A stretch of DNA of 64,000 nucleotides from an uncultured bacterium (GCA_949290385.1 CASERY010000030.1:4300-68299); one strand, 5' to 3'. Counted from the first letter of the stretch, positions 5,334 to 62,778 are shown. The notes: generated by a model not told the origin, from the letters alone. Program-made: numbers and translations.

Positions 5334-6236
5334 TTATTTAGACTGTGTTGAAAAGGGATGTGGAGCAGGTGTCGTTTCGGAGGCTTGAGAGGGAACGGTT
5401 GCGAAAATTCTGCTTTTTTGGGGATTTTGCCTGAGTGCTGATGAGGGTCGTATAATTCTGTTTCCACAGTGTGGACACGATCCGCTGAGAATGATAAAAG
5501 GTACGCTTTTTCTGACATGGGAATATCTCACAGGAAATCCCGTGCAATGATCGTGTTGATACAGACTTTTCCCGCAGAAAGCGCATCGTGTAACGAGACC
5601 ATAATAAGCAGCCAGGCGTTTTTCCACTGTGCTTCTGCCTAAAACACCAGCCCCGGCCAGGAGCAGGGATATTCCCTGCCAAAGAAAAACTGAATGAAAA
5701 GAAAATCCGTACAGAAGGGAGGCAAAAGGCAGCATACATAAAAAAAGAAACCACCCGGAAAGGATTATTCTGGATTCTCTTTCTGCCTTTCGATATTGTA
5801 GATAACTTTTGGGTGAAATCAGGCTTTTCCAGATTTTTTCCTTTTGGGGACCGTCCGGACAGACAAGGTTTTTCCCATCTGTGGAAAGAACAGAAAATTC
5901 GGCGGGAAAGCAAGAGAAGGATTGGTGTCTGTCATAGCGGCCGTGCTGACTCTGTTTCGAGGTCAGCATTAAAGGACTGTATTCCTATTGGTTTCTATTA
6001 TGATAGCCATTATGACCGGAACCTATAGATTGCGAAAGATCTCCACCGCATTCCGGACATTTGGAAAAGGTCTGCAGAATTTCCAATGAATCTCCAAAAT
6101 AGCCGTGGCAGAGCGGACAGCATCTGCTTTTCCTGATCTTTGAGTGATGATAAACTGCTGCAGTCCACCAGATCATTGCAAGAATTTCCAATCCTGGAAG
6201 TGCTGCAAGCAGGATCCAGCTGTGCCAAGGGCTCAT
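5334..6236 (-). CDS. Hypothetical membrane protein with two TM + zinc-ribbon modules (contains in-frame TAG at 5985-5987)
   Basis: ORFs 5985..6236 and 5334..5969 are in the same frame, separated only by a TAG and 5 sense codons. Each half has hydrophobic segment(s) followed by paired CxxC motifs (CPLC...CPEC; CAFC...CPHC). ATG 6234-6236 overlaps the TGA of the extended recN frame. Final stop TAA. Confidence 0.5.
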
Positions 6237-8059
6237 TTCTGAAAGAGATCCTGTTGTTCCGCGTCTTTTCCGGGGAAAGCGGAAACCGCTGTTTTTTTCT
6301 AATGACGATGGCGGGCGTGTGTTTCCATCGTTGGTTTTTCTGTTTCAGAAATGGAAGAGATTCCGGAATCGGAATGCGGATGTTTCCGGCCGGAAGACAC
6401 CTCTTTATTGTCCTCCAACATAGCCCGTGCATGCTCGCGGGCAGCAGAACCGCCGCCAAGCATGCGGCAGAGTTCATCCAGTCGCTCTTCCGGGGACAGG
6501 GATAGAAGCGTGGAACGGGTATCCTGTTCACTGGAACTTTTCATTACCAGAAAGTGGCACTCTGCACAGCTGGCTACCATGGGGGAATGGGAGATGCAGA
6601 TAATTTGTTTATGACGGGAAAGTTTGCGCAGTTCCTGTCCCACTTTCCCGGCTGTCTCTCCTCCGATGTTTGCATCAATTTCGTCAAAAATCAGAGTCGG
6701 GATGCAATCGGCCTCCGCAAGAACCGTTTTGGCGGCCAGCATGACCCTTGAAATTTCTCCGGAGCTTGCCACATCTTTCAGCGGACGCAGGGGAACTCCC
6801 GGATTGGCGCTGAAGAGAATCTGAATTTTATCACAGCCTCCCGGGCCGTATTCGGCCTGAGAGAAGTCCACTTGGAATTCGGCCTGGCGGAATCCCAGTT
6901 TCCGGGTTTCTTCGCTGAGCAGGGAAATCAGTCGGCCTGCGGCTTCACGACGGGCGAGACTGATCTGGTCGGAGATCGACTGCAGTTGATGAAAAAGGGC
7001 ATTTTCCTGATCACGGAAAGTCCGACGTGTTTGTTCGGCATTTTCAAATGCGTCTATCCGGCCGCGAATCTCATCCGCGTATTCCAGGACATTCTCAAGG
7101 GAAGGGCCATAGCGGCGTTTCAGGGTCTGAAGAATGCGCATGCGTTCTTCCATCGCCTGGAATTCCGATTCATCGAGCTCCACAGAGGCCGCATGGTGAT
7201 TGAGACTCGAGGATAGATCGGAAACCGATTCAGAAATATTTTCGAGCATCTGAAGGAAGCCTTCGGCATGTTCGGGATCGATCCGTTCCAGATCCAGCAG
7301 GGAGCGGCGGATTTCTGCGATGCGGTCAAAAAGAGAATCTTCTCCTTCTGTCAGTGCACTGCAAAGTTTCATGGCAATTTCCAGGATTGTGCGGGAATGA
7401 CTGGCAAGTTCATGTTTTTGTTTCAAAGCATCGTCTTCTCCCACCTGAACATCTGCCCGCTCAATTTCCTCCAGATCTCTTCGAAAACCGGATATTTCCT
7501 ATTCGGACGGCATGGATTCCAGAAAATGGGCATGCTTTTCCCGTATTTCCTTCAGCTCATTCCAAACTTCAGCATTTTTCTGAAGAAGCTCTGATATGCC
7601 GGCAAAGCGGTCCAGAGCGTCAAGCTGCTCGGAAGATTTGAGCAGACTTTGATTTTCATTGGCTGCGTGGATGTCCACCAGAAGTTCCCCGAAAGAACGC
7701 AGAAGCTGGAGACTTACAGGTGTGGCATTGATAAAATTGCGTGTTGCACTGGGCGTGATGACTCTGCGGATGCAAAGAATATTCGGAGCATCTTCCAGAT
7801 CCAGGGCATTTTCCTTCAAAAGGGCAGCGGCTCTGGAATCGGTTCGGGACAGTTCAAACTCCGCAGAAATTTCACAGCGGTCCGCACCAATGCGGATTGC
7901 TGATTTATCTGCACGTTCTCCGAGGAGCAATCCCACTCCGCCCATGATAACGCTTTTTCCGGCACCGGTTTCTCCTGTGATGACATTGAAAGCGGGGCCA
8001 AACTGGATTTCCGCCTCTTCCACGAGGGCAAGATTTTTCAGTTTCATCCATTTAAGCAT
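6233..8059 (-). CDS. recN: DNA repair protein RecN (in-frame TAG at 7499-7501; second TAG at 6299-6301, frame closes at TGA 6233-6235)
   Basis: ORFs 7499..8068 (N-terminal Walker A, ITGETGAGKS) and 6299..7444 (coiled coil plus C-terminal ABC signature/Walker B, SGGEISRVMLA...LIFDEIDANIGG) share one frame. Together they have RecN length. Start placed at ATG 8057-8059 (MLKWMKLKNLALV). Under code 11 this is two fragments. Confidence 0.85.
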
Positions 8060-8151
8060 TTGACGCACCTGGCAGATCTGGGAGTTTTATCCGGCATTCC
8101 CGGACAGACTCCTGTTAATATTGACTGATTTTTTTAAATTGCAAATCTCAT

Positions 8152-9249
8152 GTGGTTGAATCTGTTAAAATCATGAATATTTTAGAAGAAGAGTTTGAAG
8201 AATTTTCGCCGGTTCCCCGAATGAGTCCGGGAAATTGGCAGGAATGTTTCCAGCAAATGAATAATGCCAAGAAATCGTTGCAGCAGTCAGATCCTTTGAA
8301 AGAAAATCCCTTCAGGGCCCGCTGGTGGGTTCCTGTGCCAGAAGAAAGAGAGGTTTCCTCTAACTGTTTTTCTGGAGAGACGCCTGGTAGTCCGGGTTCC
8401 CATGAGAAGATTCGGCAGCAGACTGTAGACTCGACGGAATATAAAACTCTGATTCGTTGTCTGCTGTGTCCGCGGCAGTGCCTGATCCCGGATGGAGAAA
8501 GAGGCGCCTGCCGGATGCGTATCCATGAAAACGGATGCCTTTATTCCATAGCTTATGGATTTCCTGCAGAATTGCGTCTGGTGGGAGCGTCGAGCATTCC
8601 ATTCGGAGTTGTCAGACATGACGGAAAGATGCTTTCTGCTGCCTGTTATGGCGGATTTGCTTAGAGTTCATGCTATCCATCTCCGGCGCTTGTGGAGGGT
8701 GATTACCATCCGAGGGCAGTCTACCGCTGGTACAGTGCGGATTCCCTGACAAATCTGTGTGTCCGCTACGGGGCAGACGGACTGGTTTTTTGCGGCGGCG
8801 AACCAGGTACCTGGCTGGAATATGTGCTGGATGTATTTAAGGCTGCTGAAGGGAAAAATCTTCTTCGGGGGACTGTTATTTCCGGCCTTCTGGAGGAGGC
8901 TCCGGCAGGAGAACTGTTTGAGCTGGCCGATAAAGTGACTATATGGATTGACAGTGCATACAATGAACAGGAAATGTCTGCTGCACTCAGAACCGCGGAA
9001 ATAGGAATGAGATTTCCCGGAAAGCTGGAAATTCTTTGGAATATGCCGGCGAAGGAAGGTCCCGACACAATGGCACAGAGTCTGGAATTTCTGCAAAAAC
9101 TTTCAGCGCTTTGTGAAACAAATGGTTGTTCCCGGGAGAAACAGCCTCTGTGGATCGGTGGAGGCGCATCGAGGGAAATACAGTTCAGTCTGAGAGAAAA
9201 AGCCGTCCGGGAAACGGAATTCAAGAACTGCGTAATCTGGACGGAATGA
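8152..9249 (+). CDS. Radical-SAM-activase-like protein with degenerate cluster motif (in-frame TAG at 8662-8664)
   Basis: ORFs 8152..8664 and 8692..9249 are in the same frame. IRCLLCPRQCLIPDGERGACRMRIHENGCLYSIAYG resembles the N-terminal Cys-rich region of PflA/AmmeMemoRadiSam-type radical SAM enzymes as I recall them. The canonical CxxxCxxC is missing where expected (AACYGGFA-TAG-SSCYPSP). The start may be ATG 8173. Stop TGA. Confidence 0.45.
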
Positions 9250-16955: not shown

Positions 16956-17342
16956 AACAGTTCACCCTATTGTTGAATGATGATTTTATGATGGAAATAT
17001 TTCCTATACTTCTCGGTTTGTTTTCCGGTTCGGTCTTGCCGGACTTTTTCAGAATGGCGGGTTCCAGAAATCCCTGTATCAACACATGGGCTGCAGGGGG
17101 GTATAGAGGATTCCGATATGGATTTAAATTCCTGCCGGGAACTTTGTACAGACTCCAGATGGAAGAGAATACTTGGATTAAACAGGAATGAAGTACTGCA
17201 CTGGTCCTGTTCAGCTCCAGAAAATTCCTGAGAATATACTGTCCGTCATAGATCCCGTAATCAAAACCGCATTTCTGAAAAAGTGCCGAATCCTTCTGCT
17301 TTCTGTTTTGTCGGTTGATCCGGTTTATTCAAGATGTGCAGA

Positions 17343-17383
17343 CTGGAATGCGGAATACCCGGATTAAAAAATCCGCATTCCAG
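17343..17383. repeat. Perfect 12-bp inverted repeat (ctggaatgcgga ... tccgcattccag) with a 17-nt spacer
   Basis: Arms at 17343-17354 and 17372-17383, read directly. It lies in the 520-bp spacer between the DegT and Gfo genes (both minus strand). The loop contains a nested cggatt/aatccg palindrome. Confidence 0.9.
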
Positions 17384-17476
17384 CCATCTTCAGACCCGTG
17401 CCTGTACCTCCTTTTTCAGAGGCGGACAGTCACGGACAGGCTTTTTCCTGATATAAGCCTGTCTTCAGAGAAAATC

Positions 17477-18760: not shown

Positions 18761-19431
18761 AACTCCTTTTCAAAAGTTGGATGATTTTGCAGGTACATGT
18801 TAATTGCTGCATAGATTTTTCTTTTCATAATAAAGTTACCAGAATCTGAAGGAAACGCAAAAGAGATGGATTGTTTAAACGAACGGATTGATTGTAAAAT
18901 CTTACGATTTTTTAGATTCATATCTGATTTTTGAAGTTGTCTTTTCCCGGAGGAAAAATTTTTTATTGGTCCAGCTTCCTGCAGAGCCGCCGGGTTTTCA
19001 TTCCAGTTTCAGGCAGGAAAAGACATGATTCATAAATTGTAAAATTTTGATGAGTTTGAATTCAAATAAGAAAAGTTACAGTACGAAAAAATGGAAGGAA
19101 ATCGTTTTTCAGGATAATGTGGTCCAAAGAGGACGGAAGAGTGGGATGAAGCAGCAGAAGGCTGCTGAAACACATGACTGGAGGAAGACTCTCTGTTTTT
19201 GGGGCTGAACTGGACCGGAAACAGGAAGAAAGTTTTTCCTCAAGATTCAGATATTCGGTGTTTGTAACGGGAGGTATACCGTGGAGGGATAGGAAGGAGG
19301 AGGGCTTGTCGTATAAGAATAGCGGGATGTTTAAAAAAGAAGATCATGACTGCCGGCAGAGCCTGGCAGAAATGGAACAGACCGTGCAAGGACAGTCTGT
19401 TCCATTCTGAATTCAGACAGGAGTCTGTGTT

Positions 19432-20223: not shown

Positions 20224-21069
20224 TTACGGGTTCCTTGTGACGGGGTCAACCACTACGATGCCGTCAAAATTGAGGCGGAGACGCCGATTGATCTGAGGAT
20301 TCTACAATCCATGATCCAGTGCCGGAATCAGTCGTCCAGGAATTTCATTGTGAAGTTTCTCCCGGGAAATGTTGGCATCAAGAAAAACCATGAACGGAGC
20401 ATCCTGATGATTTTTGTAAATGAGTTCGCATTGAATATATTTTCCATTGGATACAAAGACTTTTGTCAGCTGAATGGATGGATAGTCAAGTGTAATCATT
20501 TTGATAAAACTTAATACCATCAATGCTGTAGGATCGTCGATGCGTGCGCCCGGCTGGAGCGAAGGCGGCGGCGTGACAAAGGAAAGTTTCGGCAGTTCCA
20601 TGGAAAGATTGGCACAGTAGTCTTTATCCATAATCACGCCGTTTTCATCGATGAGACGCCCCTGGCTCAGTTCGGCTCTGGGAATGCGTTCCAGCATTTC
20701 AACTTCGAGCTTGTCCGGGAGGACGCGGCTTACAGAGACTTTTTCCACTTCCGGAATGTTGTCCATAATGCTTTGTCTGAGCTTTGCCAGATCTATGGAA
20801 AACAGATTGGTATAACCCGGAATCAGCCCAAGTCTGTCGCAGAGGAGGCGGCTTTTGTTTTCACGGTCTTCCGGATTGCTGCCGCTCCAGAAGCCAGCCC
20901 GGCTTTCAATCGAAACATCTTCAAGCGTGAAGCGAGGATTCTTTTCGAAGAGCTGGATCTTTACGAACCAGAGAAGAGCGGCGCTGCCGATCCCGATTAC
21001 GAGAATTATGCAGAGTCCGATCCAGAATTTAGCGGTACCGCTGAGTTTTTCAGCCCATTTGAATGTCAT
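20224..21069 (-). CDS. ftsQ: Cell division protein FtsQ/DivIB-like (POTRA); TAG at 20302-20304 read through to TAA 20224-20226
   Basis: One N-terminal TM segment followed by a POTRA-like block (FTLEDVSIES...NLFSIDLAKLRQSIMDNIPEVEKVSVSRVLPDKLEVEMLERIPRA). The code-11 ORF is 20302..21069. The same frame continues for 25 codons (NPQINRRLRLNFDGIVVVDPVTRNP) to a TAA that directly abuts the next gene's ATG. Confidence 0.6.
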
Positions 21070-21265
21070 GAAGAATCCTTTTTCGATAAAACTTTCTTCT
21101 TTAAAAAACAGAGAATACTCTTGCTTTTCTTCCTATAGAATATATCTTCAAATAGTTTATTTTCCACTTCCCGCAGGATTTTTAAGAAATTTTTACGGGA
21201 CTGGATGAGTTTTTTTCAGATCTCACATTTTTCTATTTAATCGATCAAAATAAGGATTGCCCAAA

Positions 21266-22066
21266 ATGGAACTGCCTCAGGAACAGCCTGTAAATCTCTG
21301 GACGCACGAACCCCCTCTGGCTCATGGAAATGCTCCGGAAGATATTCCCACAATTACTGCCTATTATCCGGCAGAATGGAGAAAAAATAAAAAAGCCGTA
21401 GTTATTCTGCCTGGCGGAGCTTACTAGTGTCTGGCAGATCACGAAGGAGCCGGCTATGCCAGATGGCTGGCTCATCATGGATATTGTGCCTTTGTTGTAA
21501 AATACCGTCTTGGTTCAAATCACTATCATCATCCTGCTGAAATTTCGGATGCGGCCAGAGCTGTGCGGATTGTGCGCACTCATGCGAAGGAACTGGGAAT
21601 TGATCCGCATAAGATCGGAATCATGGGGTCTTCTGCAGGGGGGCATCTTGCAGCTTCCTGTGCGACTTTTCATGAGATGGGAATCCGGGAGGAAGGCGAG
21701 TCCATGGAGAAGAATCTGGGACGGCCGGATTTTACCATCCTGTGTTATCCGGTGATTTCTTCTGATGAGAAAATCGGGCATACCTACTCTTTTGACATGC
21801 TGCTGGGGCCTGATGCTGATCCTAAACTGAGAACATTGCTTTCCATGGAAAAGTCTGCGGACAAGGATACTCCGCCTGCTTTTATCTGGCATACCTGGGA
21901 GGATCTGGCAGTGCCGGTGGAAAACAGCCTTCTGTATGCTTTGAGACTTAGAGAATGCGGTGTGCGGTTTGATATTCATGTGTACGAAAAAGGCGGACAT
22001 GGCATGGGGCTTGGCGATGGTCATCCCTGGGGAGAAGAGTGCCTGCGTTTTCTGGACAGCATCTGA
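21266..22066 (+). CDS. Alpha/beta hydrolase (esterase) with in-frame TAG at 21425-21427
   Basis: ATG 21266 ... VVILPGGAY-TAG-CLADHEGAGYARWLAHHGYCAFVVKYRL ... GIMGSSAGGHLA (GxSxG nucleophile elbow). The track only lists the 3' part, 21563..22066, in the same frame. Stop TGA. Confidence 0.78.
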
Positions 22067-22434: not shown

Positions 22435-23490
22435 ATGGAACAGAAACAGTCTCAGAAAACCGATCGGTTTCAGCTGATGGCAGCCCCACTTCAAGGCTAT
22501 ACCCTGTCTGATTTCCGGAATGCCCATCGAAAAAGCTGTGGAGGGGCAGATGTCTATTTCACCCCGTTTCTGCGCTTGGAAAAAGGGCTTGTCCGGAAGA
22601 AGGAACTGGCGGATCTGCGCAGAGATTTGGAAGTGGAAAGCCGTGGTATTACTGTCCCCCAGCTGATGGTGAAAAGTCCGGAAGAACTGGCTGTTTTCGT
22701 GGAGACAATCCGGCAGGAAAATGTACTGCGGGAATCCTTTCATTTTCCTCCTTTCCAATGGATTGATTTAAACTTTGGCTGTCCGTTTCCGAAAATGACG
22801 GAACATGGATATGGCGCCGGAATTCTGGCAGAAGAGGATTGTGTGAAAAAACTGCTCTGCTCACTGAAAAAATATCCGGACTTTCATTTCTCTGTGAAAA
22901 TGCGTGCAGGAATGCATTGTCGCGATGACTGGAAGAAATTGGTGGGATTTCTCATTGATGCAGATCTGGAGCTGGTTGTTTTTCATGGAAGAACAGGCGA
23001 TCAGGGATATGACGGCGAGGCAGACTGGACTCTCTGTCTGGATTTTGCTGAATGTTATGGCGGGCGTGTCGTGTATAATGGCGACATCCGGACGCTGGAA
23101 CAGGTTCGTTTTCTAAGGGAAAAGATTCCACATTTGTGCGGAATCATGGCAGGTCGCGGTCTTCTGGCCAATCCTCTGCTGTTTCTGGAAATCCGGGAAA
23201 ACGGAAAAAGATACCTGCAGGAAAGAATTCAGCATTTGGAGCAGTATACTACATATTTCCTGGAGGAAGTTTCCCGCAGAACAGATCAGGTTCTTCCGGA
23301 GTAGAAGCGATTATGGGATTTTTTTCTGCCGGAAGCGGATAAGCGTCTGCGTAAAAAAATCCAGAAATCAACAGATCTGGATGAATATCAGTTCTGGGTG
23401 AAGGAACTTTTTTCTCAGATGACGGAATCCGGAAAAGAGGATAGCAGTCCTTCCGGGAATGAGGATGAGCCGGACCTGGAAGATTGTTAA
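22435..23490 (+). CDS. tRNA-dihydrouridine synthase family protein (in-frame TAG at 23302-23304)
   Basis: ORF 22435..23304 has Dus TIM-barrel motifs (MAAPLQGYT, DLNFGCP, VKMR, HGRT). The same frame continues after the TAG as KRLWDFFLPEADKRLRKKIQKSTDLDEYQFWV... to TAA 23488-23490. This resembles the conserved C-terminal tail of this Dus subfamily as I recall it. Confidence 0.82.
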
Positions 23491-23640: not shown

Positions 23641-25026
23641 TTAAAAAATTTCCCGGCAGTCGGCCAGAATGGAAAGACCTTCTCTTAATTTTGCAAAACT
23701 GCCGGCGGAAGAGAGAGAGACTCGGAGAAAAGGGTGTCTGGGATTTTTCCGGACAGCAAAATGGTCTGAATGCTGAACTAAAATCCCCTTTTCGGCAAGA
23801 GTTTGCTCAATGCGTGCACCGCTTTCCCGGGAGGCGATAGGCAGACTCCGGAAAAAGGCATAAGGATGAGCACTGCTGTCATTCATCTCCGGGAAAATTT
23901 GATTGAACAGCTGATTGGCTTTTAAGGCAAGAGATTTCTTTTTTTCGAGAATGGCGGATGCTTTTCCGCTGAGAATGAGTTCCGTGATAATTTCCGCATC
24001 CAGAGAGGAACTTTTAATGTTCATACTGTAAAGTCCGTGAAGAATGCGTTTGCGGAAGGCTTCCGGAAATGCGGCAAAGGCTATGCGTATGCCGGTGCAG
24101 AGATTTTTCGTGGAACCGCAAATAAAAAATGTCTGGTCCGGAAGCATGGAGAAAAGGGAGCGGACGGGACCTTTCCCGGATCCGAGAGTGCCCATGAGGT
24201 CATCTTCAAGGAGGATGAGACGGTGTTTCTGTATGATTTGTGCAAGGGCTTTTTTCCTGTTTTCCGACATGCTGAGAGCTGTTGGATTGGAGCAGGAAGG
24301 CATCAGAAAGATGCCGCTGATTTTTTCACGGGAACATTGTTTGTCCAATGCTTCGGGATCCATGCCTTGCGCATCTCCGGGAATGGGGATGATCTGGAGG
24401 TGAAACAGTTTTGCAGCCTCGATAAAATTGGCATAGGTGAATTCGTCTGCTGCGATGCGGTCCCCCAGACGGAAAAGGGAGACCAGTGCTACAGTCAAAG
24501 CGTTTTGCGCTCCTGAAAAAATGGCGGTGTGATTGCAGTCTGTACGGACATCCATCTGTTCCATCCAGCGGACGCCTGCCGCACGTTGATGCAGATGGCC
24601 TTCCGCATCTGAATAGGCACAGAGCTTTTTCAGATATTCTTTGCTCAGAACAGACTACGCAGTTTCAGGAATGAAATCATTGCATTCATCAAATACATGA
24701 ACAATGCCAAGCTGAATTTTTCCGGATGGATTCAGAAAATCATTTCCGTGGCCGGTATATGGCGCCGTAAAGGTGCCTTTCCCTGCAATGCCGTAGATTA
24801 AATGTTTCTCCCGACAGAGATCATACGCTCGTGTGACGGTTGTAAAATGAATGTCCAGAAAGTCGGCCAGCTCCCGCTGGGGTGGAAGACGTGTGCCGGG
24901 AGCCAGATGGCCGTTTTGAATATCTTCTTCCAGCAGGTTTGCTAGAGAGAGGTAGCAGGGTCTGGATAATTTGGAACGATCGGGTCTCCAGCTCATTTTA
25001 TAATTTTCAAAGGAATTGACCGGCAT
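23641..25026 (-). CDS. pdxR: MocR/GabR-type regulator (GntR wHTH + aminotransferase-like domain), PdxR-like; in-frame TAG at 24655-24657
   Basis: ORFs 24655..25026 (wHTH, LPPQRELADFLDIHFTTVTRAYDLC) and 23641..24564 (fold-type I PLP domain) share one frame with no other stop between them. The gene is divergent from pdxST, the arrangement known for PdxR. Stop TAA. Confidence 0.8.
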
Positions 25027-26975: not shown

Positions 26976-27314
26976 TTAAAAAACCGTTTGAATCAGGATC
27001 ATGTAAAAAAGGGTGGAGGAAAGAATGGACAGAAGGGGATTGTGCTTCCAGAGCTGGAGTCCTACGCAGAGCGCCGAAGCCAGAAGTTCCGGAATACCGT
27101 AGGGACTGCTGAAAACAGGCGTATTCTGAAAACAGTAGACAATCAGAAGCTAAATGACGGCAGGACTGATTACCCGTCCGATGTAGAGGATGACTTCCGG
27201 AGGGTTCTTGTCTTTTCTGCCGAATGCGGCAAATGCAAAACCCCGAAGAGCAAATGTGACCGCGAACATAACGGCTGTCGCGCTCAATAAATAGGTTGTA
27301 GAAGGAGTATCCAT
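26976..27314 (-). CDS. azlD: Branched-chain amino acid transport protein AzlD (in-frame TAG at 27150-27152)
   Basis: Not in the ORF track because it is split below 60 aa. The reverse strand reads MDTPSTTYLLSATAVMFAVTFALRGFAFAAFGRKDKNPPEVILYIGRVISPAVI-TAG-LLIVYCFQNTPVFSSPYGIPELLASALCVGLQLWKHNPLLSILSSTLFYMILIQTVF-TAA. The start overlaps the azlC stop (TGATG). Size and hydrophobic pattern are typical of AzlD. Confidence 0.75.
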
Positions 27315-29659: not shown

Positions 29660-30271
29660 ATGTCTGATATCAAAACGATATTTGCCGATGAAGTCCGAAG
29701 ATTGTCCCGGAAAGAAATTAAAGTAGCAACATCATCTTTTGCCGGCCAGATTTAGACTTTGAAAAAAGAAATAGCTGAGCTTTCCCGTGAACTGAAAAAA
29801 TTGAAAAAAGAGGAAGAAGACCTGAAAAAAGTCTCAGAAATGTTCTGTTCAGCGGGTTTTCCCCATGGCAATGGCTCTGAAGAAAGTCATTCAGAATCTC
29901 CTGCACATCCTAAGCAGTTCCGTGTCAGTGGAGCCCGGCTTGCAAAAATTCGGAAGAAACTGGGATTGACCCAGGCAGAATTCGCTGCAATTCTGAATGT
30001 TACAACGCTGACCGTCTCAAATTGGGAACGAGGTAAGAATAAAATCCGCCAATGCCAGAAAAAAGCCATTGCAGAGTTGAGCCGGATGAGCCGCAACGAC
30101 TTGAATGCATTCCTGGCTGAAAAGTTGCCGGCTCACAAAATAGATAAGCCTCATGGCATTCGCCTGCATCATCGAAAGGAAAAGGATTCCAGCATTCAGG
30201 CCTTTCCGGAAGAGGAAATTGAACCGGATACGGAGAATGAAATTCATGAGGTTTCGGTATCTGCAGTATAA
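29660..30271 (+). CDS. XRE-family HTH protein with N-terminal coiled coil (in-frame TAG at 29753-29755)
   Basis: A strong SD (AAGGGAGG) lies upstream of ATG 29660. The sequence reads MSDIKTIFADEVRRLSRKEIKVATSSFAGQI-TAG-TLKKEIAELSRELKKL..., then the HTH LGLTQAEFAAILNVTTLTVSNWERG. The track lists only 29759..30271, in the same frame. Stop TAA. Confidence 0.75.
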
Positions 30272-35007: not shown

Positions 35008-35034
35008 TCAGCAAAAAAAAGTTGCAGCCCCTTG

Positions 35035-40164: not shown

Positions 40165-41085
40165 ATGGCCGGCATAGTTGCAGAAAAAATGATTGAGATG
40201 TTTGTCATCCTGATTGCAGGAATGATCATCTATAAATGCAAACTGGCAAATGCACAGGCAAGCAAAACACTGTCCAATCTGCTTCTGATGGTGGTTTCCC
40301 CGCTGCTGATTCTTGAGTCCTATCAAATGCCATTTGACTGGGGGCTGTTTTACGGCCTGCTGTGGACTTTTTAGATTTCACTGATCATGTTTGGAATCAT
40401 GATTGTTCTTTCGGAAATTTTTTTCCACGGGACGGGAAAAAGAATTCCGGTGGAAAAACTCTCCTCCGTTTATTCCAATTGCGGATTCATCGGATTCCCT
40501 TTGATTGACGGTATCTTCGGGGCAGAGGGAATTTTCTATATGACTGCCTATACAACGGTTTTCAATCTCCTTTTCTGGACGCACGGAGTCTGGGCAATGG
40601 GCAGTGGGGGAAATGTGAAAAGTACTTTGAAGAGTTTGTTTACTCCGGCTATTGTGGCTGTATTCCTGGGGCTTTTTCTGTTTGTAGCGCAGATTCGTCT
40701 GCCTGAAACGCTTGCTGAGCCGCTGGATATGATTGCGGATATGAATACGCCTCTGGCGATGATTGTGGCCGGAATCAACCTGGCTCAGGCCGACTTCCTG
40801 AAGAGTCTGAAGAAGATCCGAATTTACTGTGTCTGTCTTCTGAGACTTGTTTTTTTCCCGCTTGTCGGAATCCTGATTCTCGCGCAGCTGCCGCTGGATT
40901 TCAAGGTGCTTTTTACGGTTTTTATCGGAATGGCTTGTCCATCGGGGGCCATGGTGATTATGTTTGCGGAACGCTATGGCAAGGATGCGCTGTATGCTTC
41001 TGAAATTTTTACCTTGACAACCATTCTGTGTGCGGGAACGATTCCCGTGCTTTCCATTCTGGCTGTAAAGATGTTTGTCCATTAA
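40165..41085 (+). CDS. AEC (auxin efflux carrier) family transporter (in-frame TAG at 40372-40374)
   Basis: ORFs 40165..40374 and 40387..41085 are in the same frame. Together they give a roughly 300-aa polytopic protein with AEC-like N- and C-terminal halves. Stop TAA. Confidence 0.78.
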
Positions 41086-42155: not shown

Positions 42156-43175
42156 ATGAAAACGTATTTTATGAAAAGATTTACTGAAAATTTCAGAAGA
42201 GTTTTTCCCCGGGGATTCGTTCTGCTGATTGTGCTTCTGCTGTTCGCTTCCGGATGCTCAGACGTCTATTATATGCTGAAGACCTCGGCGGACAGTCGGT
42301 GGGCTGAGGCCAGGGCTTTGCGTATCCAGGCTCAGAAGGAAACGAAGGAGGCGCTGGAGAAAGGAATATCCAAAGGTGAATTCAAAGGGGAAAAATGGAT
42401 TCTTCCTTCCGGGGAGTGCGATGAAATCTGGATAGGTCGCGTAGAGTCATGCGGATTTATGAATGATTCTGGAAACTGCTTTGTGACGCTTTATCATGCG
42501 GTGTGCCTTTATTCCTTTGAAAGAGATGAACCAGGCAAGGAATCTTTTCTGACAATGGAAGGACATATTCTTCAGTTTCCTCATCAGCGTTTCCCGGAAG
42601 AGGGTCAATGGGTGCTTGCCGCAGTAACTCGCTCAAAAGTTCCGGAAGATGATACCGTCTGCATGGAAAATGCCGTGGATGCCCAATTTGACAGCAGCGG
42701 CAATTTAATTTTATTGTCCCGCTGTACACTGCCGAGAAAATTTGTTCAGGCTCTTCTGGATATTGATCCGAAAACGAAGATTCACTTTGCAAAAGACGAT
42801 GCGCGCGGAACTGGATCTCTGCTGGACGGCCGTGTATCGTTTGATTTCCGGGAACTTTTCTTTGCCGATATCGCTGCAGAACCGGTAACCAGATAGACCG
42901 GAGAGGACGGCCGGGAATTTGTAGAATATGCAGGACGTCTTGCCGACAGCGGCCGGATTATTCCTTGCGGCCCGGATTTCTCAAGAGGCTTGACAGACGA
43001 GGAATTTTTTGCCAATCCGTATATCGATGCGGGTTATTTTTTTATACGATTCCGGTTTCCGGCGGAACAGGAGTCCGTATTTTCACAATTTCTTGGGCCG
43101 TATCCTCCGCCGGCAACAAAAGATCAGGGAGAATCAGCCGATGTTGAACATTCAACGGGTCCATATGGACCGTAA
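42156..43175 (+). CDS. Hypothetical lipoprotein (TAG at 42894-42896 read through to TAA 43173-43175)
   Basis: Signal peptide with lipobox (LLLFASGC). The code-11 ORF is 42156..42896. The same frame continues as TGEDGREFVEYAGRLADSGRIIPCGPDFSRGLTDEEFFANPYIDAGYFFIRFRFPAEQ..., which is the same frame as track ORF 42990..43175. The extension is plausible but unverified. Confidence 0.5.
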
Positions 43176-48519: not shown

Positions 48520-48615
48520 GGATTCGTGCTGAATTCGCGCGCTGTGCGCAGAAAGAGTCCTGTCAAGGCAAGTGAGATTCTTCTTCAGGGTCCGGTTCAG
48601 ACTGGTCTGGAAAAA

Positions 48616-50481
48616 ATGGAGTCACACATGATGAAGTCGATTTGGAAACAAATGGTTCTCCTGGCGGGATTGTTCTGTTGTTCGGAACTCGCCGCAGACG
48701 ATGTATATTTCGACGCGACGCCGCAGCAGAGTCCAGTGCTTGCAGATGGAATCGGTTCATCTCCGGAAGAACGGGGAAGAATCGATTCTTTGTTTTTATT
48801 CGCAAAGGCGCTTTCTGAAAGTCCCAATGGTCTTCTGACGCCTGAAGCAGCGGATATACAATGTCAGGCATTCTGTGAAATTCTGGCTGCTGATCCGGGT
48901 AATGCAGCCGTGCTTGGACGCTTGTTGTCTCTTTACCAGGAATATCCGGAAACGGTAAAGGTATATGAAAAGCGTATCCGGGAAATTCAGGCTGCCCATC
49001 CGGCAGAACCGGGCCTTGCGTATTTCGTTGCCATTTTCCTGGATTATTTTGAAGGTCGTACCGAAGAGAGTCTGAAGCTGCTGAAAGACTGTATCATTCA
49101 GGCAGAAAGGGCGGAGCCTTTTGCTTCTCTTTCTCCGGAGAGCCCTGATTTCTGGCTCAGACTGGATCTGTTGACTCAGTTGTTTCGCATGGAAGAATCT
49201 GTGAATCCGGAGGCGGAGCCTGTTTTAGTACGGGAAATTCTTTATTCCAGTCCTTATCTGGGACAGAATGTTTCAGCAATGGTGCTGTAGCTGTCTCTTG
49301 CAACAAAAGACATTATAATTTATCCTCCATATTTTGCCACAGGAACTCCGGGAGAAACTGCACTGGAGAATTCGCCTCTGGCTGCGATGGAGTCCTTTTC
49401 AGACTTGGAGGATCTGGCATTGAAGCTTTTGAAGGAAATGCCAGATTTTACATACGAAGGGGATCCCCGCAATCTTATAGAGATTCTGGGTGTTTTTTCT
49501 GTGCGTCCGAAACTGCTGGAAGACTGTCTTCAGGATTTAAAGGAATCTTCCCAGAAAAAGGATTCCTCTGAATACAGTCTGGCACTTGCCGCAGTCTATA
49601 GCTTGCACGGGAATCATGAAAAGGGCGCTGCAGAATATGCTGAGCTTGCAGCCAAAGGCAAAAAAAGACTGTCCGCACAGGAATATGTGCAATGGGCTTC
49701 ATGCCTTTTAAACCTGGAGGATATGACGGGTGCGGCAAAGGTTCTGGAGAATGGGCTGAAGAAATATCCCGAAGAACAGGGTCTGATTCGGAGATTGCTT
49801 GTCTGTTATGCCAGGCTTGGAAATAAGAAAGGCGTTCTGGAGATGCGGAAGCGTCTGCTGGAACAGTATGAGAAACAGTTTTATTTAATGTATATGGCGG
49901 CCTTGTCCGGATATTACCAGCAGGGATATGCCGTGGGACAGAACATTGAGAGAAGTCTGCCCGAAGAAGAACTTTTCCAGCCGGGTATGCTGCCGTTCTG
50001 GGTAACATACCTGTCCTGCATGGGGGAGTCTGCGGATATCGCAGAGTTTCATGAGAAGGCCGAAAAGTGTCTGAAGCATTTTCCCAATGACCCGAATCTC
50101 CTTAATACGGTTGGCTATGTTTATGCGGATCGCAATGTGTACTTGGACCTGGCGGAGAAATACTTGCAGAGAGCTCGCAGAATGCTCCCGGATGCAAGTG
50201 AGATAGCCGACAGTCTGGCCTGGCTTTATTTCCGCCAGGGAAAACTGGACCTGGCAAAAAAGGAGATGTTTGAAAGTCTGGTTCTTGCCGGATCAGAGCC
50301 GGCTCCGGAAATTCTGGATCACGCAGGAGATATTTTTCTAAGTTCCGGCGATCTTCGTGCAGCGTTGAAGTACTGGTAGACAGCATATGAGTTTTCTCCG
50401 GACGGATCTGAAATAAAACAGAAAATCGAAGAAAAAATTCAATCTCATTCCAGTTCAGCCGGAAAACCAGGAGAGATTTGA
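48616..50481 (+). CDS. Secreted TPR-repeat protein (in-frame TAGs at 49288-49290 and 50377-50379)
   Basis: ORFs 48526..49290 and 49387..50379 are in the same frame with no other stop between them. After the second TAG the frame continues as TAYEFSPDGSEIKQKIEEKIQ... to TGA 50479-50481, completing a TPR helix-B pattern. The signal peptide is MMKSIWKQMVLLAGLFCC. Confidence 0.7.
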
Positions 50482-55266: not shown

Positions 55267-56190
55267 ATGAAAATAAGTTTGAGATAGAGTTTTTTATTTT
55301 TCTTGCTGATACAGTCGCTTGTTTGGACGGTGGGCTGCTATCAGATTGTACCCCGGAACTATGCGCAGAGAATTGAGCCCGGCGGAACGATTGAAGATCA
55401 CTTTTTGAAAATGGGGCCTTATAAAGTCGCGAGAACAGACATTGATTATTCCGGAAAAGAGGAGGAAGTGTATGCAATCTGGTATCCGGAGAATATCGGC
55501 GAACTTGACAGGAAATTTCCATTGATTATTGTCAATGGAGGAAAGGGAGAGAAAGCCTCTCTTTGTGAAAGTTTGTTTGAACATCTGGCCTCCTGGGGAT
55601 TTATCGTTGCCGGCATGGAGCAGGACCTTTCGTGGGAAGCGTCGGAGGCTGGAATGATCTTAAAGAGAATGCGGCAGCTTCATACTGTGCAGGAATGCGA
55701 ATATTTGAGCGCAAATCCGTTTTATGAGAAGGTGGATCTGGACCGGATTGGTATATATGGTCATGCTCAGGGAGGGGCTGGAAGCATCAACAGCATTGCC
55801 GGGGGGGAGAATGGGGCTATGTACAAAGCTGCTTTTATCAGCAGTCCTGCTGAGCCGGAGCGTGTTCATTTCCCTGAATGGGAACATGATTTGTCCAGTA
55901 TCAGTATCCCGATTGTGCTTTGTGCCGGAACAGATACCGCAGAGAAGGAGCAAAAATGTTCTTTGGGAAAAATGAGATTCATGTATGACCAGATTCCATC
56001 CAGAATCAAAGTGATGATGTGCCGGCACGAGAACAGCCATGATGAAATGCTGTACGCTGCGGATGGTTATATGACTGCTTTCTTTATGTGGCAGCTGCAG
56101 GATGATCAATCTGCAGCGGGCGCGTTTACTGTCGAAAATGCTGAAATTCTGAGAAATCCAGCCTATCAGGATGTAAAGAAGAATTTTTGA
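55267..56190 (+). CDS. Secreted alpha/beta hydrolase (dienelactone-hydrolase/cutinase-like) with in-frame TAG at 55285-55287
   Basis: GGAGG lies 7 nt upstream of ATG 55267. The sequence reads MKISLR-TAG-SFLFFLLIQSLVWTVGC..., a signal-peptide-like N-terminus. The track ORF 55303..56190 is in the same frame. GIYGHAQGG is the nucleophile elbow. Stop TGA. Confidence 0.7.
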
Positions 56191-56276: not shown

Positions 56277-56855
56277 TTATTTGGCGCTCTGTTGGGAGGA
56301 AGGCGTGTTATCTAGCGTAATATTATGATCCTCTTGTCTGTTTTCTCCGGGACTGCATTGTGCCCGGAGGATTAGAAAATCTCTCCAGAGAGAAGGATCT
56401 TTTTTCAGAAGTTTAGAAAGTTTTGACGGACTTGTCTGAAGTAGTTCCGCAGATTGATGAAGATCTGCAGAACAGGAAAAAAGAACGTCGAAAAAGTCCG
56501 CAATCCAGCATGGATAACGCGTATTCCCGGCAGAGGGGACAGGCTCCAGATGAAAGAGTCGTTTTTCCAGTGGATACTGATCCAAGGGGATACGGATCTG
56601 CCGTGCGATTTCTCTTCGGAGTTTCTGACAGGCAATTTTTCTGTTGGCAAGCTGGCTTCTGGATTCCATGCAGCGTACAGAAATTCCGCTGGAAAGATGA
56701 AGTGCACGAACGGAGGATGAGGTTTTGTTGATTTTCTGTCCGCCATGGCCGGTCGCTTTCTGAAAGTCCAGATGAATCATTCTGGAAAAATCTTCTTCTG
56801 ATGCAGAGAGGATTCTGCTTCTTTCTTCATAGGTCATATCGGCGACAGTCTTCAT
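56277..56855 (-). CDS. GGQ-domain protein (class-I release-factor domain-3-like, RF-H/ArfB-like) with unrelated C-terminal domain
   Basis: KATGHGGQKINKTSSSVRALHLSSGISVRCMESRSQLANRKIA matches the peptidyl-tRNA hydrolase domain of RF1/RF2/PrfH. No codon-recognition domain is visible. The C-terminal roughly 100 aa has an HTH-like segment (SAELLQTSPSKLSKLLKK). Stop TAA. Confidence 0.7.
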   Translation of the reverse strand: MKTVADMTYEERSRILSASEEDFSRMIHLDFQKATGHGGQKINKTSSSVRALHLSSGISVRCMESRSQLANRKIACQKLRREIARQIRIPLDQYPLEKRLFHLEPVPSAGNTRYPCWIADFFDVLFSCSADLHQSAELLQTSPSKLSKLLKKDPSLWRDFLILRAQCSPGENRQEDHNITLDNTPSSQQSAK

Positions 56856-57626: not shown

Positions 57627-57630
57627 AGAA

Positions 57631-58086
57631 TCAATAGGGCCTTTCTGCAAGGGCATTTTCAGCCTGGTAAAGAATTTTCCCATCCGGCGAGAGAAGCTGG
57701 ACCTGCCAAATCCAGACAGAATCTTTTTCCTGAAGAGAATCTTTCAGCTCATAAATATTTTCAGCTTCTCCATAAAAGATGACCCGGGCGTTGAGGAGCT
57801 GTTGTACTACAGCAAAATTCAAGGCGTTGTACTGATCCACATGGATGCCGGGCTTGCCATGAGTCAACTCATTGGAGAGAGCCATGGAAATGCCGTTGAC
57901 AACAGAAGCTGTGGCTTCATTGAAGGTCAGTGACGAGACTTGGGGGATTCCCGGAACAATGCCGCTATCCGGTTCAGGACGGTCACTGTACCACCAGTCC
58001 CGGACAGAATCACAGCTGCAGCAAAGCAGTGCAGCGCAGAATAAAAAGGTCATGAGAAGCGTCTGTTTAGAATAGAAATGAAGCAT
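57631..58086 (-). CDS. Hypothetical lipoprotein
   Basis: MLHFYSKQTLLMTFLFCAALLCCSC signal/lipobox. No family recognised. It lies 4 nt upstream of xth. Stop TGA. Confidence 0.55.
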   Translation of the reverse strand: MLHFYSKQTLLMTFLFCAALLCCSCDSVRDWWYSDRPEPDSGIVPGIPQVSSLTFNEATASVVNGISMALSNELTHGKPGIHVDQYNALNFAVVQQLLNARVIFYGEAENIYELKDSLQEKDSVWIWQVQLLSPDGKILYQAENALAERPY

Positions 58087-58330
58087 TTTTTTCCCTTTGA
58101 ATGAAAATGGGTGTTTTTTAGAATGATGGAGTCTGTTCACCTTTTCTTCTTCCTGCCTTTTTCGTGGAAGGAAGACAGAAAAGCACTCTTACAGCACATT
58201 TATACAGAAAAAACAGTACTGTCTTTTCCCGGAAATTGCAAATTCCAGCAAGGAAAATCCGTATTTTGCTTTTCGGGTTTTCCGTCTTTCTGCTGCTAGG
58301 GGATACCCCCCACACACAAAGCATGGTTTT

Positions 58331-59626: not shown

Positions 59627-59729
59627 ATATGAAGAAATATCCTTATGAGATGTGATGCTGAAATCAAGAGAAAAATGGAATCCCTATGAAAATCCTGCTG
59701 AAGAATTGAAGAACAACTCTTTTTCGGGT

Positions 59730-60941: not shown

Positions 60942-61278
60942 CTTTTCAAAATCTCCGGGAAAGGGTAAGGAATTACATTTTATAGAATAACAATCCACTA
61001 TAAGATAATGCGGAGGCGCTATTTCGCAAGCAGGGAACGTGATTTTTTTCAGGTCAGAAAAATTCGTTTGAAAGAGCTGGAAGTTTTTCAGCAAATCCGA
61101 TGGCGGAACTGAATCTTTTACTTTGACTTGACTTCAGCGGGATGGTTTCAGAATCCACCGCGAAAAAGTCCTTGAAATCCGCGGATGCCGCAATATGTTA
61201 GCATTTGGCATAGGACATACGAGTATCTGCTGTGCTTAATAGTAAAGAAGACAGTAAAAACAGACGGAGGAATAAGGG

Positions 61279-62778
61279 ATGGTGCCGGATGGGGCCGACT
61301 CGAAATGTTTTTTCAGAAAAATCGGCAGAAATGCAGGGGCCGCATGGTGGATCCCGACTCTTTATTTTGCAGAAGGGGCACCTGCTTCTATTTTTACAGA
61401 AGTCTCAGTTCCGATTTTCATGTCCTTCCAAATGAGTGAAGGGATGATTGCTCTCTGGTCCAATCTGCTGGGACTTGTGCCGATTCTGTTGATTAAAATA
61501 CTATGGGCGCCTTTCGTGGATGCTGTCAGCACAAAGCGCTTCTGGATTATTATGACACAGATTTCCATGGCCGTTGTCTTTTTCTTTTCGGCGGCGGCAT
61601 GCTGTGCGGGCAGTCTTGCTCCGCTTCTTCTGATCAGTACATTTGCCCTGGGGGCCTTTTTTTCCGCAACCCATGATGTGGCGGCAGACGGATATTACAT
61701 TATTGCTCTTTCTGAACGGGAACAGGCGCTGTATTCCGGTTTGCGCAGCGTGTTCTTCCGGGTGGCCATGATCGCGGCAAACGGAGGACTGATTTTGTTC
61801 GCCGGGTTCCTGTCGGATGCGGTCGCAGGTGAGATGAACGATGTTCGTGCGGGATTCGTCTGGATGATCAGTTTGCTGATTCCGGGTATCCTGATGGGCC
61901 TGCTGGCACTTTATCACTGGATGGTTTTGCCGGAGAGAGAAGAAAAACAGAAAAGCAGGATTTCAGGCAGATGCGGGAATGGAGAATGGAGTTCCCGCAA
62001 CGGCTGCGGGGAAAAAAATTCCGTTTCAAAAAAGCTTCAAGAGGAAAGTAGCGAAAAACGAATTGGCATCCGGCAGATTTGGCAGGATTTCAGACAGTCA
62101 GGCGTCCTTTTTTTCAAAAAGCGACAGGTGGGGACAGTCTTGCTGTTCCTGTTGTTTTTCCGTTTATAGGAATCCCAGCTGGGAGCCATGTCCAAACTCT
62201 TTCTCCTGGATTCGCAGAACGGAATGGGCCTGACTCTGAAAAGCTATGGATTCCTGGCTGGGACTGTTTCCCCGGCAATGCTTCTGGCCGGAGGGGTCCT
62301 TGCCGGCTGGGTTGTCACCCGAACAGGCCTGGATAGAATGCTGATGATGATGGCTTGTGCCATCAATCTGCCTGATCTGGTTTATCTGTGGATGGCTTTT
62401 TGCCGGGAAATGCCGTTATGGGGCGTGGGAATTTGCACAGGCATTGAAGCATTCGGATACGGATTTGGATTTACCGGTTATATGCTGGTCATGGTGTGGT
62501 TCGCTGCAGGAAGTGGAAAATGCAAGACCAGTCACTATGCCCTGATGACCGTGTTTATGATTGCAGGTTATCGAATTCCGGCCATGTTTTCCGGAAAAAT
62601 ATTTGAAGGGTTCAAAGCTCTGCTGGATCATGCTTTTATAAAAACAGATCTTTGTGCACTGCCTTATCAGGTTTTCTTTGTCTGGGTGATGATCTGTACA
62701 ATTCCGGGGTTTATAGTCTCCAGACAAATGCTAAAGCATATGACTCCGCATTATGGAATGAAGGATAAGCTGGATTAA
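61279..62778 (+). CDS. ampG: AmpG-family muropeptide MFS transporter (in-frame TAG at 62167-62169)
   Basis: GGAGG lies upstream of ATG 61279. WWIPTLYFAEGAP...ILWAPFVDAVSTKRFW and, after the TAG, ...LFLLDSQNGMGLT...GIEAFGYGFGFTGYML...KTSHYALMT match AmpG blocks. ORFs 61279..62169 and 62188..62778 are in the same frame. Stop TAA. Confidence 0.82.

Follow-up and report, generated by a model that had tools for sequence, protein, structure and literature searches.

Is UAG still a stop codon in the gut Victivallales (Lentisphaeria) bacterium that carries this locus? The stretch of DNA analyzed here, hereafter the window, is a 64,000-nt segment of a bacterial chromosome with 47% GC, and full biosynthetic genes, and neither genome reduction nor extreme AT bias is apparent in it. 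With TAG read through, we defined 47 CDS in the window totaling 16,760 codons, including the housekeeping genes gatB, argG, pdxST, hppA, asd, pyrH, truA, rpsO, pnp, and gap. About one quarter of the otherwise intact genes had an in-frame TAG, giving 16 TAGs in 14 unrelated genes, or 16/16,760 codons (~0.1%). The TAG-bearing genes were scattered among the housekeeping genes over 57 kb. They were mostly accessory, and the highly expressed housekeeping genes of the window (hppA, pnp, gap, rpsO, pdxS) contained no TAG. The 14 genes are as follows.

5334..6236, minus strand: hypothetical Cys-rich membrane protein, TAG at 5985-5987, read-through ORF of 300 codons.
6233..8068, minus strand: recN, TAGs at 7499-7501 (codon 190) and 6299-6301 (codon 590).
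8152..9249, plus strand: degenerate radical-SAM-like (AmmeMemoRadiSam-type) gene, TAG at 8662-8664.
20224..21069, minus strand: FtsQ-like POTRA protein with a POTRA_1 match, TAG at 20302-20304, 25 codons ahead of the TAA.
21257..22066, plus strand: BD-FAE/alpha-beta hydrolase esterase, TAG at 21425-21427, two residues past PGGAY.
22435..23490, plus strand: tRNA-dihydrouridine synthase (Dus), TAG at 23302-23304 (codon 290), before the conserved C-terminal helical domain.
23641..25026, minus strand: MocR/GabR-type regulator (GntR HTH plus aminotransferase), TAG at 24655-24657 in the linker between the two domains.
26976..27314, minus strand: AzlD branched-chain amino-acid exporter subunit, TAG at 27150-27152 within a transmembrane segment.
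29660..30271, plus strand: HTH (Xre/MqsA-like) protein, TAG at 29753-29755 (codon 32).
40165..41085, plus strand: auxin-efflux-carrier (AEC) family (Mem_trans) transporter, TAG at 40372-40374 with Mem_trans stretches on both sides.
42156..43175, plus strand: orphan lipoprotein, TAG at 42894-42896 ahead of a protein-like tail of 92 codons.
48526..50481, plus strand: TPR-repeat protein, TAGs at 49288-49290 and 50377-50379 with TPR matches on both sides.
55267..56190, plus strand: secreted PETase/chlorophyllase-like hydrolase with a PETase match, TAG at 55285-55287 within the signal peptide.
61279..62778, plus strand: AmpG-family MFS muropeptide permease, TAG at 62167-62169.

All 16 codons listed in the original prediction were TAG on the strand given, and reading through them produced single ORFs with homology on both sides. 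Thirteen were clearly gene-internal, flanked on both sides by domains or homologues in comparisons using Pfam, NCBIfam, PDB, and tblastn. Pfam SMC_N covered residues 13-506 of RecN, which was 57-60% identical over its full length to the intact RecN of relatives, and by this comparison the recN TAG at 7499-7501 is clearly internal. The esterase matched BD-FAE over residues 33-223 and aligned with PDB 6a6o across the TAG (residues 7-255), and Dus had the Pfam Dus match and aligned with PDB 1vhn across its TAG at 290 (residues 16-326). The AzlD domain (residues 12-107) and, in AmpG, NCBIfam TIGR00901 (residues 72-479) also spanned the TAG. GntR (residues 25-86) and Aminotran_1_2 (residues 135-452) flanked the TAG of the MocR regulator, and HTH_3 (residues 94-129) lay downstream of that in the HTH protein. 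The radical-SAM-like gene had lost its catalytic cysteines; its N-terminus matched NCBIfam TIGR04337, and a tblastn match of residues 97-266 to the syntenic radical-SAM gene of L004 spanned the TAG. The hydrolase N-terminus reads MKISLR-TAG-SFLFFLLIQSLVWTVGC, and read-through restored a canonical signal-peptide n-region (MKISLR). A family search with the Cys-rich membrane protein returned no match.

The three TAGs near C-termini (6299, 20302, and 42894) could still be terminators, and to that extent the predicted set of 16 interruptions is qualified. The second recN TAG is in a C-terminal tail that is not conserved, ~30 residues past the point where RecN homologues stop, and could be either sense or stop. 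The FtsQ-like TAG at 20302-20304 and the lipoprotein TAG at 42894-42896 may also be either, and strains had no SNPs in the tail that follows each of them. The lipoprotein tail overlaps the likely start of the next gene (43141) by 35 nt, and an exhaustive HMMER search for lipoprotein homologues recovered nothing beyond the protein itself and one repeat-derived artefact. No Pfam- or NCBIfam-annotated gene of the window was interrupted by TAA, TGA, or a frameshift, as had been claimed at the outset. If stop types were equiprobable, the chance of 16 out of 16 being TAG would be ~2e-8.

We compared the window with sibling loci from same-species metagenome assemblies (97.8-99.8% identity; mostly MEGAHIT-style, k87/k141; several ENA and Logan samples). 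Of the 16 TAGs, 15 were identical in 2-8 independent assemblies, and the same TAGs were found across >10 independent assemblies in all. Sibling L001 retained both recN TAGs as well as those of the Cys-rich membrane protein (5985) and the radical-SAM-like gene (8662). The MocR TAG was kept in six assemblies, those of Dus (23302), AzlD (27150), the HTH protein (29753), and AmpG (62167) in five, those of the FtsQ-like protein (20302) and the esterase (21425) in four, and those of the lipoprotein (42894) and the hydrolase (55285) in three. The AEC TAG (40372) was the only one of the 16 outside sibling-locus coverage, and it had indirect support from siblings L036 and L039, where a truncated 162-aa Mem_trans product was called at their edge. 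One site was polymorphic. The TAG at 50377, position 25 of a TPR motif, was CAG in strains L042 and L043, whose TPR ORF (364 aa) extended to the same TGA.

SNPs among these strains showed that sequence past the TAGs evolves as protein-coding DNA. Downstream of each gene's first TAG there were 53 synonymous and 27 non-synonymous SNPs, where neutrality predicts 30% synonymous (P=2.5e-11); genes without TAG had 171 and 58, respectively. Synonymous to non-synonymous counts for individual genes were 2:0 in the Cys-rich membrane protein, 8:4 in the MocR regulator, 8:1 in AmpG, and 22:9 between the two TAGs of the TPR gene. The purifying selection was frame-specific and restricted to the annotated frame, which had a ratio of 14:7 in the first SNP batch, when the two other frames gave 3:18 and 4:17. 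None of 458 SNPs created an in-frame TAA or TGA. Since the DNA after the TAGs continues to be selected at the protein level, translation of TAG is almost certain in the host.

TAG also occurred in essential genes. Sibling contigs that run past the window end had an in-frame TAG at codon 55 of rpoA and at codon 53 of obg. A sister species, with RpoA 93% identical at the amino acid level and ~81% nucleotide identity (~19% DNA divergence), had TAG at two rpoA codons (55 and 139) and at two positions of an MFS gene, so that the rpoA-55 TAG is common to both species. We also compared 80 GTDB Victivallales species and one further relative. RpoA-55 was A, S, or T in 81/81 of these loci. The trait is therefore restricted to one lineage, as the sister species has it and RpoA-55 is a sense codon in the 80 GTDB relatives, which also have genuine TAG stops.

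Stop usage gave a weaker signal. The original prediction counted 48 CDS ending in 29 TAA, 19 TGA, and no TAG; our recount gave 47 CDS with 28 TAA and 19 TGA. No gene in the window is demonstrably terminated by TAG, although the three TAGs near C-termini may be terminators. Among the 80 GTDB relatives, TAG made up 68/817 stops (8.3%), with clear true TAG terminators in, for example, L091, L061, and L049. At that rate the probability of no TAG among 47 stops is 0.017; with TAG stops rare across the whole clade, the argument reaches only marginal significance. One standard-code ORF that was absent from the earlier list (47783-48349, minus strand) does end in TAG. We rejected it as a TAG-terminated gene; it looks non-coding because it had no codon-position periodicity, no family match, and 3 synonymous to 6 non-synonymous SNPs.

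Intact and essential genes hold TAG, the TAGs are fixed across strains with one site common to a sister species, the downstream frame is selected, and no gene demonstrably ends in TAG. We therefore conclude, with a probability of roughly 0.87 and on sequence evidence, that in the host and its sister species UAG is probably no longer a terminator and is decoded as an amino acid chromosome-wide. The normal TAG stops of the relatives fit the same conclusion, and the proposal of reassignment or constitutive amber suppression made from the window itself was thus supported. A young, lineage-specific reassignment is the best reading.

The machinery would consist of a tRNA with anticodon CUA that reads UAG and the loss of RF1, or of UAG recognition by RF1, after which RF2 would handle TAA and TGA. 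There were no tRNA genes in the window or in the scanned sibling loci, and none of the 11 tRNAs in the relatives' loci had a CUA anticodon. The sole RF-1-domain gene in the window encodes a 192-aa stand-alone GGQ protein that is neither RF1 nor RF2. Codon capture is the likely route. The surrounding clade has TAG at only 6-8% of stops, and RF1 loss would thus be tolerable; TAG would then have reappeared at low frequency (~0.1% of codons), largely where constraint is weak.

Serine (or another small residue) and glutamine are the leading candidates for the amino acid. RpoA-55 is the most constrained column, where ~200 homologues have nothing but A, S, T, or G and none has Q, and a small residue such as serine would fit it. 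Glutamine would fit the strain polymorphism at 50377 and several variable columns, including those of RecN (E/Q/R) and the esterase (T/Q/L). Homologue columns at RpoA-139 (P) and Obg (N/R/K) differed again, and the columns did not converge on one standard residue. Summed Pfam scores were best for Q, ~1.3 bits ahead of the next residue tried. TAG does not exchange with CAG or TGG as a neutral synonym would, and CAG-to-TAG SNPs among strains numbered 0 versus 5.8 expected. Tentatively, the code may lie outside current tables. At least two free-living gut Victivallales species would then have lost RF1 and would read UAG as serine or another small residue, not glutamine, by means of a tRNA with a mutated anticodon and a synthetase that ignores the anticodon.

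If RF1 were kept and a suppressor or near-cognate tRNA read TAG part-time, the codon would be both stop and sense and genes containing it would be down-tuned. The three TAGs at plausible terminator positions (the recN and ftsQ tails and the orphan lipoprotein) would then be instances of a dual-use codon. The rarity of TAG and its absence from the window's most highly expressed genes point the same way, as does the strong under-representation of CAG-to-TAG changes, which suggests a cost of TAG. We nevertheless consider such leakiness unlikely. The rpoA and obg TAGs are near the 5' end, where partial termination would be costly, and the rpoA TAG has been kept at ~19% DNA divergence. No TAG-terminated gene was demonstrable, and the apparent C-terminal stop at 50377 is CAG in other strains with an ORF that continues to the same TGA. 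Genome-wide decoding of TAG as pyrrolysine or another non-canonical amino acid would be compatible with the lack of convergence in the aligned columns, with exchanges between TAG and CAG or TGG not being neutral, and with conservation of the rpoA-55 TAG between two species. It is quite improbable nonetheless, as a bulky lysine derivative fits poorly with the restriction of RpoA-55 to A, S, T, or G, the TAGs are spread across 14 unrelated genes and families, and none of the window's 47 annotated genes was a pyl gene or a methylamine methyltransferase gene (mtmB, mtbB, mttB).

Nonsense mutation in decaying genes has some circumstantial appeal, given the mostly accessory genes, the radical-SAM-like gene without its catalytic cysteines, and CAG-to-TAG being a common nonsense route with one site (50377) that is CAG in other strains. 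Decay had been expected to leave mixed lesions, but 16/16 were TAG with no frameshifts, and the TAGs are fixed among strains, one of them in two species. The selection test (P=2.5e-11) and the TAGs in essential rpoA and obg effectively refute this reading, which we regard as extremely improbable. An artefact of sequencing, assembly, or binning is vanishingly so, including contamination by phage DNA in which TAG is recoded. TAG-to-Gln recoding is known in gut phages and a public gene caller rendered the sister-species contigs with TAG as Q (table 15), but the recurrence of the same TAGs in >10 independent assemblies and a bacterial chromosome segment with housekeeping genes and TAG genes interspersed over 57 kb effectively refute it.

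The proposed reassignment of UAG in this bacterium can be set beside several known systems. TAG-recoded gut bacteriophages (crAss-like, Lak, and other clades) use table 15, with TAG to Gln, in hosts described as standard-code. They share with our bacterium the same sense codon, an animal gut habitat, and genes split by table-11 calls, and table 15 was also chosen for the sister contigs. The DNA analyzed here is instead a cellular chromosome with housekeeping genes and far lower TAG density (~0.1% of codons), and glutamine is no more than a candidate, with RpoA-55 favoring a small residue and changes from CAG to TAG depleted. Pyrrolysine is inserted at UAG in Methanosarcinales, Methanomassiliicoccales, and some Bacillota and Desulfobacterota, and TAG terminators are depleted in some of these Pyl users. 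UAG is translated there as well, but it is concentrated in methylamine methyltransferase genes, whereas the host TAGs are in recN, dus, ampG, rpoA, obg, and others. A mechanistic model is laboratory E. coli, in which the amber suppressors supD, supE, and supF are tRNA(CUA) derived from tRNA-Ser, tRNA-Gln, or tRNA-Tyr, and the recoded strain C321.deltaA is viable without RF1 after removal of TAG terminators. The host lineage looks like a natural version of these engineered or selected strains, population-fixed and common to two species.

The bacterial reassignments listed in the literature searched involve UGA only (PMC8629427; PMC13462651). There is no report of UAG as sense on a bacterial chromosome in the literature searched up to August 2026, in line with the original statement that no described case was known (PMC8629427; PMC13462651). 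UGA is read as Trp (table 4) in Mycoplasmatales, insect endosymbionts, two Verrucomicrobiota ciliate symbionts, and Eggerthellaceae, and as Gly (table 25) in Absconditabacteria and Gracilibacteria; the expected signature of stop reassignment is loss of the matching release factor and a new tRNA (PMC13462651, PMC8629427). Like these cases, the host shows a stop codon captured as sense in a restricted lineage. Its codon is UAG, however, the factor expected to be lost is RF1 rather than RF2, and its window gives no hint of genome reduction or of extreme AT bias. Eukaryotic nuclear UAR/UAG reassignments in ciliates, some green algae, and trypanosomatids also turn UAG into sense; they arose independently and involve various amino acids (PMC11687900, PMC10553269). 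Those changes involve eRF1, which reads all three stops, whereas the bacterial division of labor between RF1 and RF2 predicts a different and simpler path.

The window is a segment of bacterial chromosome (GC 47%) in which, as far as the sequence evidence reaches, the original prediction that the amber codon is reassigned or constitutively suppressed was supported. The kind of system supported is a genetic-code change, here a putative variant of UAG in a bacterial chromosome. Annotated genes included gatB, argG, recN, a U32 peptidase gene, MacB/FtsX-type ABC transporter genes, pdxS/pdxT, azlCD, hppA (H+-pyrophosphatase), asd, pyrH, truA, an ECF sigma factor gene, rpsO, pnp, a Mur ligase gene, ampG, and gap. 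Homologues of the U32 peptidase and RpoA were labelled Lentisphaeria, Victivallales, and Victivallaceae bacterium, and a gut metagenome was the source named for one sample among the siblings (same-species contigs from other assemblies). Direct sequence checks found TAG at 16/16 predicted sites on the predicted strand, and the same-frame ORF pairs became single genes once TAG was read through, with homology on both sides. In no annotated gene of the window did a TAA, a TGA, or a frameshift break the reading frame. The companion claim that no gene needs TAG as its stop stood in part: the final stops of 47 CDS were 28 TAA, 19 TGA, and 0 TAG, a zero only marginally significant (P = 0.017) because of the clade's low TAG usage, and three TAGs may terminate.

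The siblings, retrieved by exact-protein look-up from many independent assemblies (ENA ERZ17292901-05, ERZ943862, ERZ28564245, ERZ28564513, ERZ27250291, and ERZ27249966, plus Logan runs), were 97.8-99.8% identical to the window. They covered 15 of the 16 TAGs (40372 was the uncovered one) and had TAG in every strain, with one exception: the two strains that diverge most have CAG at 50377. The TAGs are not an artefact. For a test of selection, strain SNPs in TAG-bearing genes were sorted by their position relative to the gene's first TAG. Downstream segments contained 53 synonymous and 27 non-synonymous SNPs (P = 2.5e-11 against a neutral model with the observed transition bias, which gave an expectation of 30% synonymous), with ratios of 33:23 upstream of the first TAG and 171:58 in genes without TAG. 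In the first SNP batch the annotated frame gave 14:7, and the two shifted frames 3:18 and 4:17. No SNP out of 458 made an in-frame TAA or TGA. Judged by these substitution patterns, translation runs on beyond TAG.

Homology across individual TAGs pointed the same way. SMC_N covered RecN residues 13-506, and RecN matched the intact RecN of relatives from end to end at 57-60% identity. The TAG of the esterase lay within the BD-FAE domain, and PDB 6a6o also aligned across it; the AzlD domain covered the AzlD TAG, and TIGR00901 (NCBIfam) covered that of AmpG, a region with no PDB relative. The MocR TAG was flanked by GntR on one side and the aminotransferase on the other, and Mem_trans matched either side of the TAG in the AEC transporter. 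For Dus, the alignment to PDB 1vhn passed the TAG into conserved C-terminal helices; a scan of its N-terminus against genome contigs found no close relative, the species being absent or masked in that set. A chimeric query joining 140-aa windows, each around one of eight TAGs, matched almost nothing but RecN, the word prefilter having swamped the other fragments. An alignment between the radical-SAM-like gene and its syntenic homologue in a relative (L004) continued through the TAG, and the window's gene had a further peculiarity:

8152-9249 (+), radical-SAM-like gene; compared with L004 2471-3367, all three CxxxCxxC cysteines are lost, and the homologue keeps them.

The cysteine region reads GCNLACRFCQN in L004 and YGGFA-TAG-SSCYPS in the window. 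Identity was 30%, against 60% for the neighbouring recN, and the ORF is still open; by this comparison the gene has either degenerated or taken on a new function.

Three TAGs could be either internal or terminal. The one at 6299 is in the recN tail, past the end of homologues; that at 20302 is 25 codons upstream of the TAA of an ftsQ-like gene; and that at 42894 is in an orphan lipoprotein, for which an exhaustive HMMER search matched the protein itself and one repeat-derived artefact and nothing else. Several other ORFs bear on how the window's genes are called:

47783-48349 (-), ORF of 188 aa ending in TAG, accepted by gene callers and absent from the original prediction
47451-48525, gap of ~1 kb between the ECF sigma factor gene and the TPR gene, containing that ORF
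17315-18784 (+), very long antisense ORF opposite a real gene
31286-33400 (-), very long antisense ORF opposite a real gene
34432-36168 (+), very long antisense ORF opposite a real gene

The 188-aa ORF had no codon-position periodicity and 3 synonymous vs 6 non-synonymous SNPs, and is probably non-coding. The long antisense ORFs, these three and others, lie opposite degT, hppA, and ghmp/gfo. They had no family matches and the wrong codon-position GC pattern; they could misguide ORF-based annotation.

Essential genes carried TAG as well. In siblings running past the window's right end, rpoA has TAG at codon 55, which divides it into 54-aa and 263-aa products, and obg is split by TAG at codon 53. 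The closest database RpoA, P0158, was 93% identical and comes from a sister species (~81% DNA identity). The DNA of that species carries two TAGs in rpoA, at codons 55 and 139, and two more in an adjacent MFS gene. Since the sister species carries in-frame TAGs too, the trait is older than the split of the two species. Translation of the P0158 locus with table 11 does not give the query protein; P0158 has Q at the TAG positions because of the gene caller's TAG=Gln table, not the DNA. Two features of these contigs are listed here:

L025-L032, sister-species contigs; the public pipeline read TAG as Q, and the deposited RpoA has Q at two TAG positions
L012 7869-9875 / L018 5900-7906 (siblings), 668-aa phosphoglycerate kinase-triose-phosphate isomerase fusion, ~100 nt past the window end, adjoining gap

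Bacterial contigs translated with TAG as Q could pass for recoded phage, and the Q residues in their proteins for amino-acid evidence.

The next relative (RpoA 89% identical) had 20 intact genes, with 11 TGA and 9 TAA stops and no in-frame TAG. Across loci around rpoA from 80 GTDB Victivallales and Lentisphaeria species (1.2 Mb), ORFs of at least 150 aa ended in 417 TGA, 332 TAA, and 68 TAG (8.3%), with 5.8% TAG in the closest group; the inspected cases included genuine TAG terminators. In nine relatives the frame stays open for a long stretch after TAG; on inspection these extensions were rejected as recoding, being antisense junk or adjacent genes. Judged by these stops, the relatives keep the standard code, and the clade's low TAG usage supplies the precondition for codon capture. 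One JGI metagenome contig from a relative (L005; U32 peptidase 67% identical) held two likely in-frame TAGs:

L005 46-1218 (-), same-frame ORFs joined across TAG, GNAT_C-family protein
L005 5575-6123 (+), same-frame ORFs joined across TAG, small protein beside an AAA ATPase

A family matched on only one side of each TAG, and the contig had no other TAG stops. L005 may be part of the recoded clade.

Taken with the homology, these data show TAG to be, on sequence criteria, a decoded codon. The decoding route we infer draws on established knowledge: UAA is recognised by both release factors, UAG by RF1, and UGA by RF2, and one anticodon change is enough to make an amber suppressor (supD Ser, supE Gln, supF Tyr). 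ARAGORN found no tRNA(CUA) in the window, 11 sibling or relative loci, and 80 GTDB loci, and the window and sibling loci scanned contained no tRNA genes of any kind. One protein of related function was present:

56277-56855 (-), 192-aa stand-alone GGQ / RF-1-domain protein, GHGGQ motif intact, kept in all sibling contigs

Its best NCBIfam match was prfH (66 bits, far under the cut-off), with weak ArfB similarity, and it is not RF1 or RF2. It might hydrolyse peptidyl-tRNA independently of the codon or rescue ribosomes, and this would be relevant if RF1 is absent.

In a rough split among candidate residues, serine leads with a probability near 0.35. Several columns point to a small residue of this kind. 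At RpoA-55, ~200 homologues had only A, S, T, or G, with no Q among them, and 81/81 relative loci (80 GTDB and one further relative) had A, S, or T; close relatives have TCG, TCC, or TCT there, and TCG to TAG is one step. The AzlD column favoured A, G, or S by ~1.5 bits, and at RpoA-139, where the sister species' TAG replaces a conserved Pro, Ser occurred in 3/118 and 4/81 homologues and Gln in 0 and 1. Glutamine follows closely, only slightly less probable than serine. The strains with CAG at 50377 are consistent with it, as are the RecN (E4, Q3, R4, S1) and esterase (T, T, L, Q, Q) columns; Q at RpoA-55 in P0158 was rejected as evidence, the DNA there being TAG and the Q the caller's assumption. 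Against TAG as a neutral CAG synonym, 388 covered CAG codons predicted 5.8 CAG-to-TAG polymorphisms and 0 were seen (P = 0.003). In a Codetta-like test, X was replaced by ten candidate residues at five sites and Pfam bit scores were compared; Gln had the highest sum (Q 220.1, A 218.8, K 218.6, E 218.4, S 218.3, L 216.5), ~1.3 bits above the next residue tried, but differences were ≤2 bits at 4/5 sites and ~4 bits at TPR_2, and the test was non-discriminating because TAG sites fall in weakly conserved columns. When all TAG-bearing proteins were run by tblastn against the 80 relatives' 1.2 Mb, RpoA alone yielded columns, since synteny around rpoA was not conserved. Another standard amino acid seems unlikely; that the residue is non-canonical or the decoding ambiguous seems more unlikely still.

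Amber recoding is known in gut phages and in eukaryotes, and TAG-recoded phages are common in guts; a host already reading TAG would alter the picture of phage-host code conflict. According to a 2021 screen of >250,000 genomes (PMC8629427), every known bacterial code change reassigns UGA, and UGA cases are again the only ones listed by the GTDB team in August 2026 (PMC13462651). Full-text literature searches returned nothing relevant on Lentisphaerae stop-codon reassignment, a bacterial UAG sense codon, or code 15 bacteria. Chromosome-wide UAG reassignment, if true, would supply the missing case that the RF1/RF2 split predicts and provide a natural parallel to RF1-free recoded E. coli. The codon-capture route would be directly testable, since near relatives that keep the standard code and seldom use TAG are available. 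Under table 11, pipelines break up roughly one in four of the organism's genes, including rpoA, and so inflate pseudogene counts and lower apparent MAG quality, while code-aware callers may take such contigs for phage.

Two further strain polymorphisms were recorded:

57647, CAG in the window and TAG in several siblings, in the frame of a long version of an Exo_endo_phos gene
32203-32986, within hppA, dense and mostly synonymous SNP block in several siblings, part of it common to three

The 57647 SNP was discounted, as it probably falls upstream of the phosphatase gene's true start (57626) and within the neighbouring gene (57631-58140), which is read in another frame. SNPs in hppA were 58 synonymous and 16 non-synonymous, and the block looks like a recombination tract from a diverged strain.
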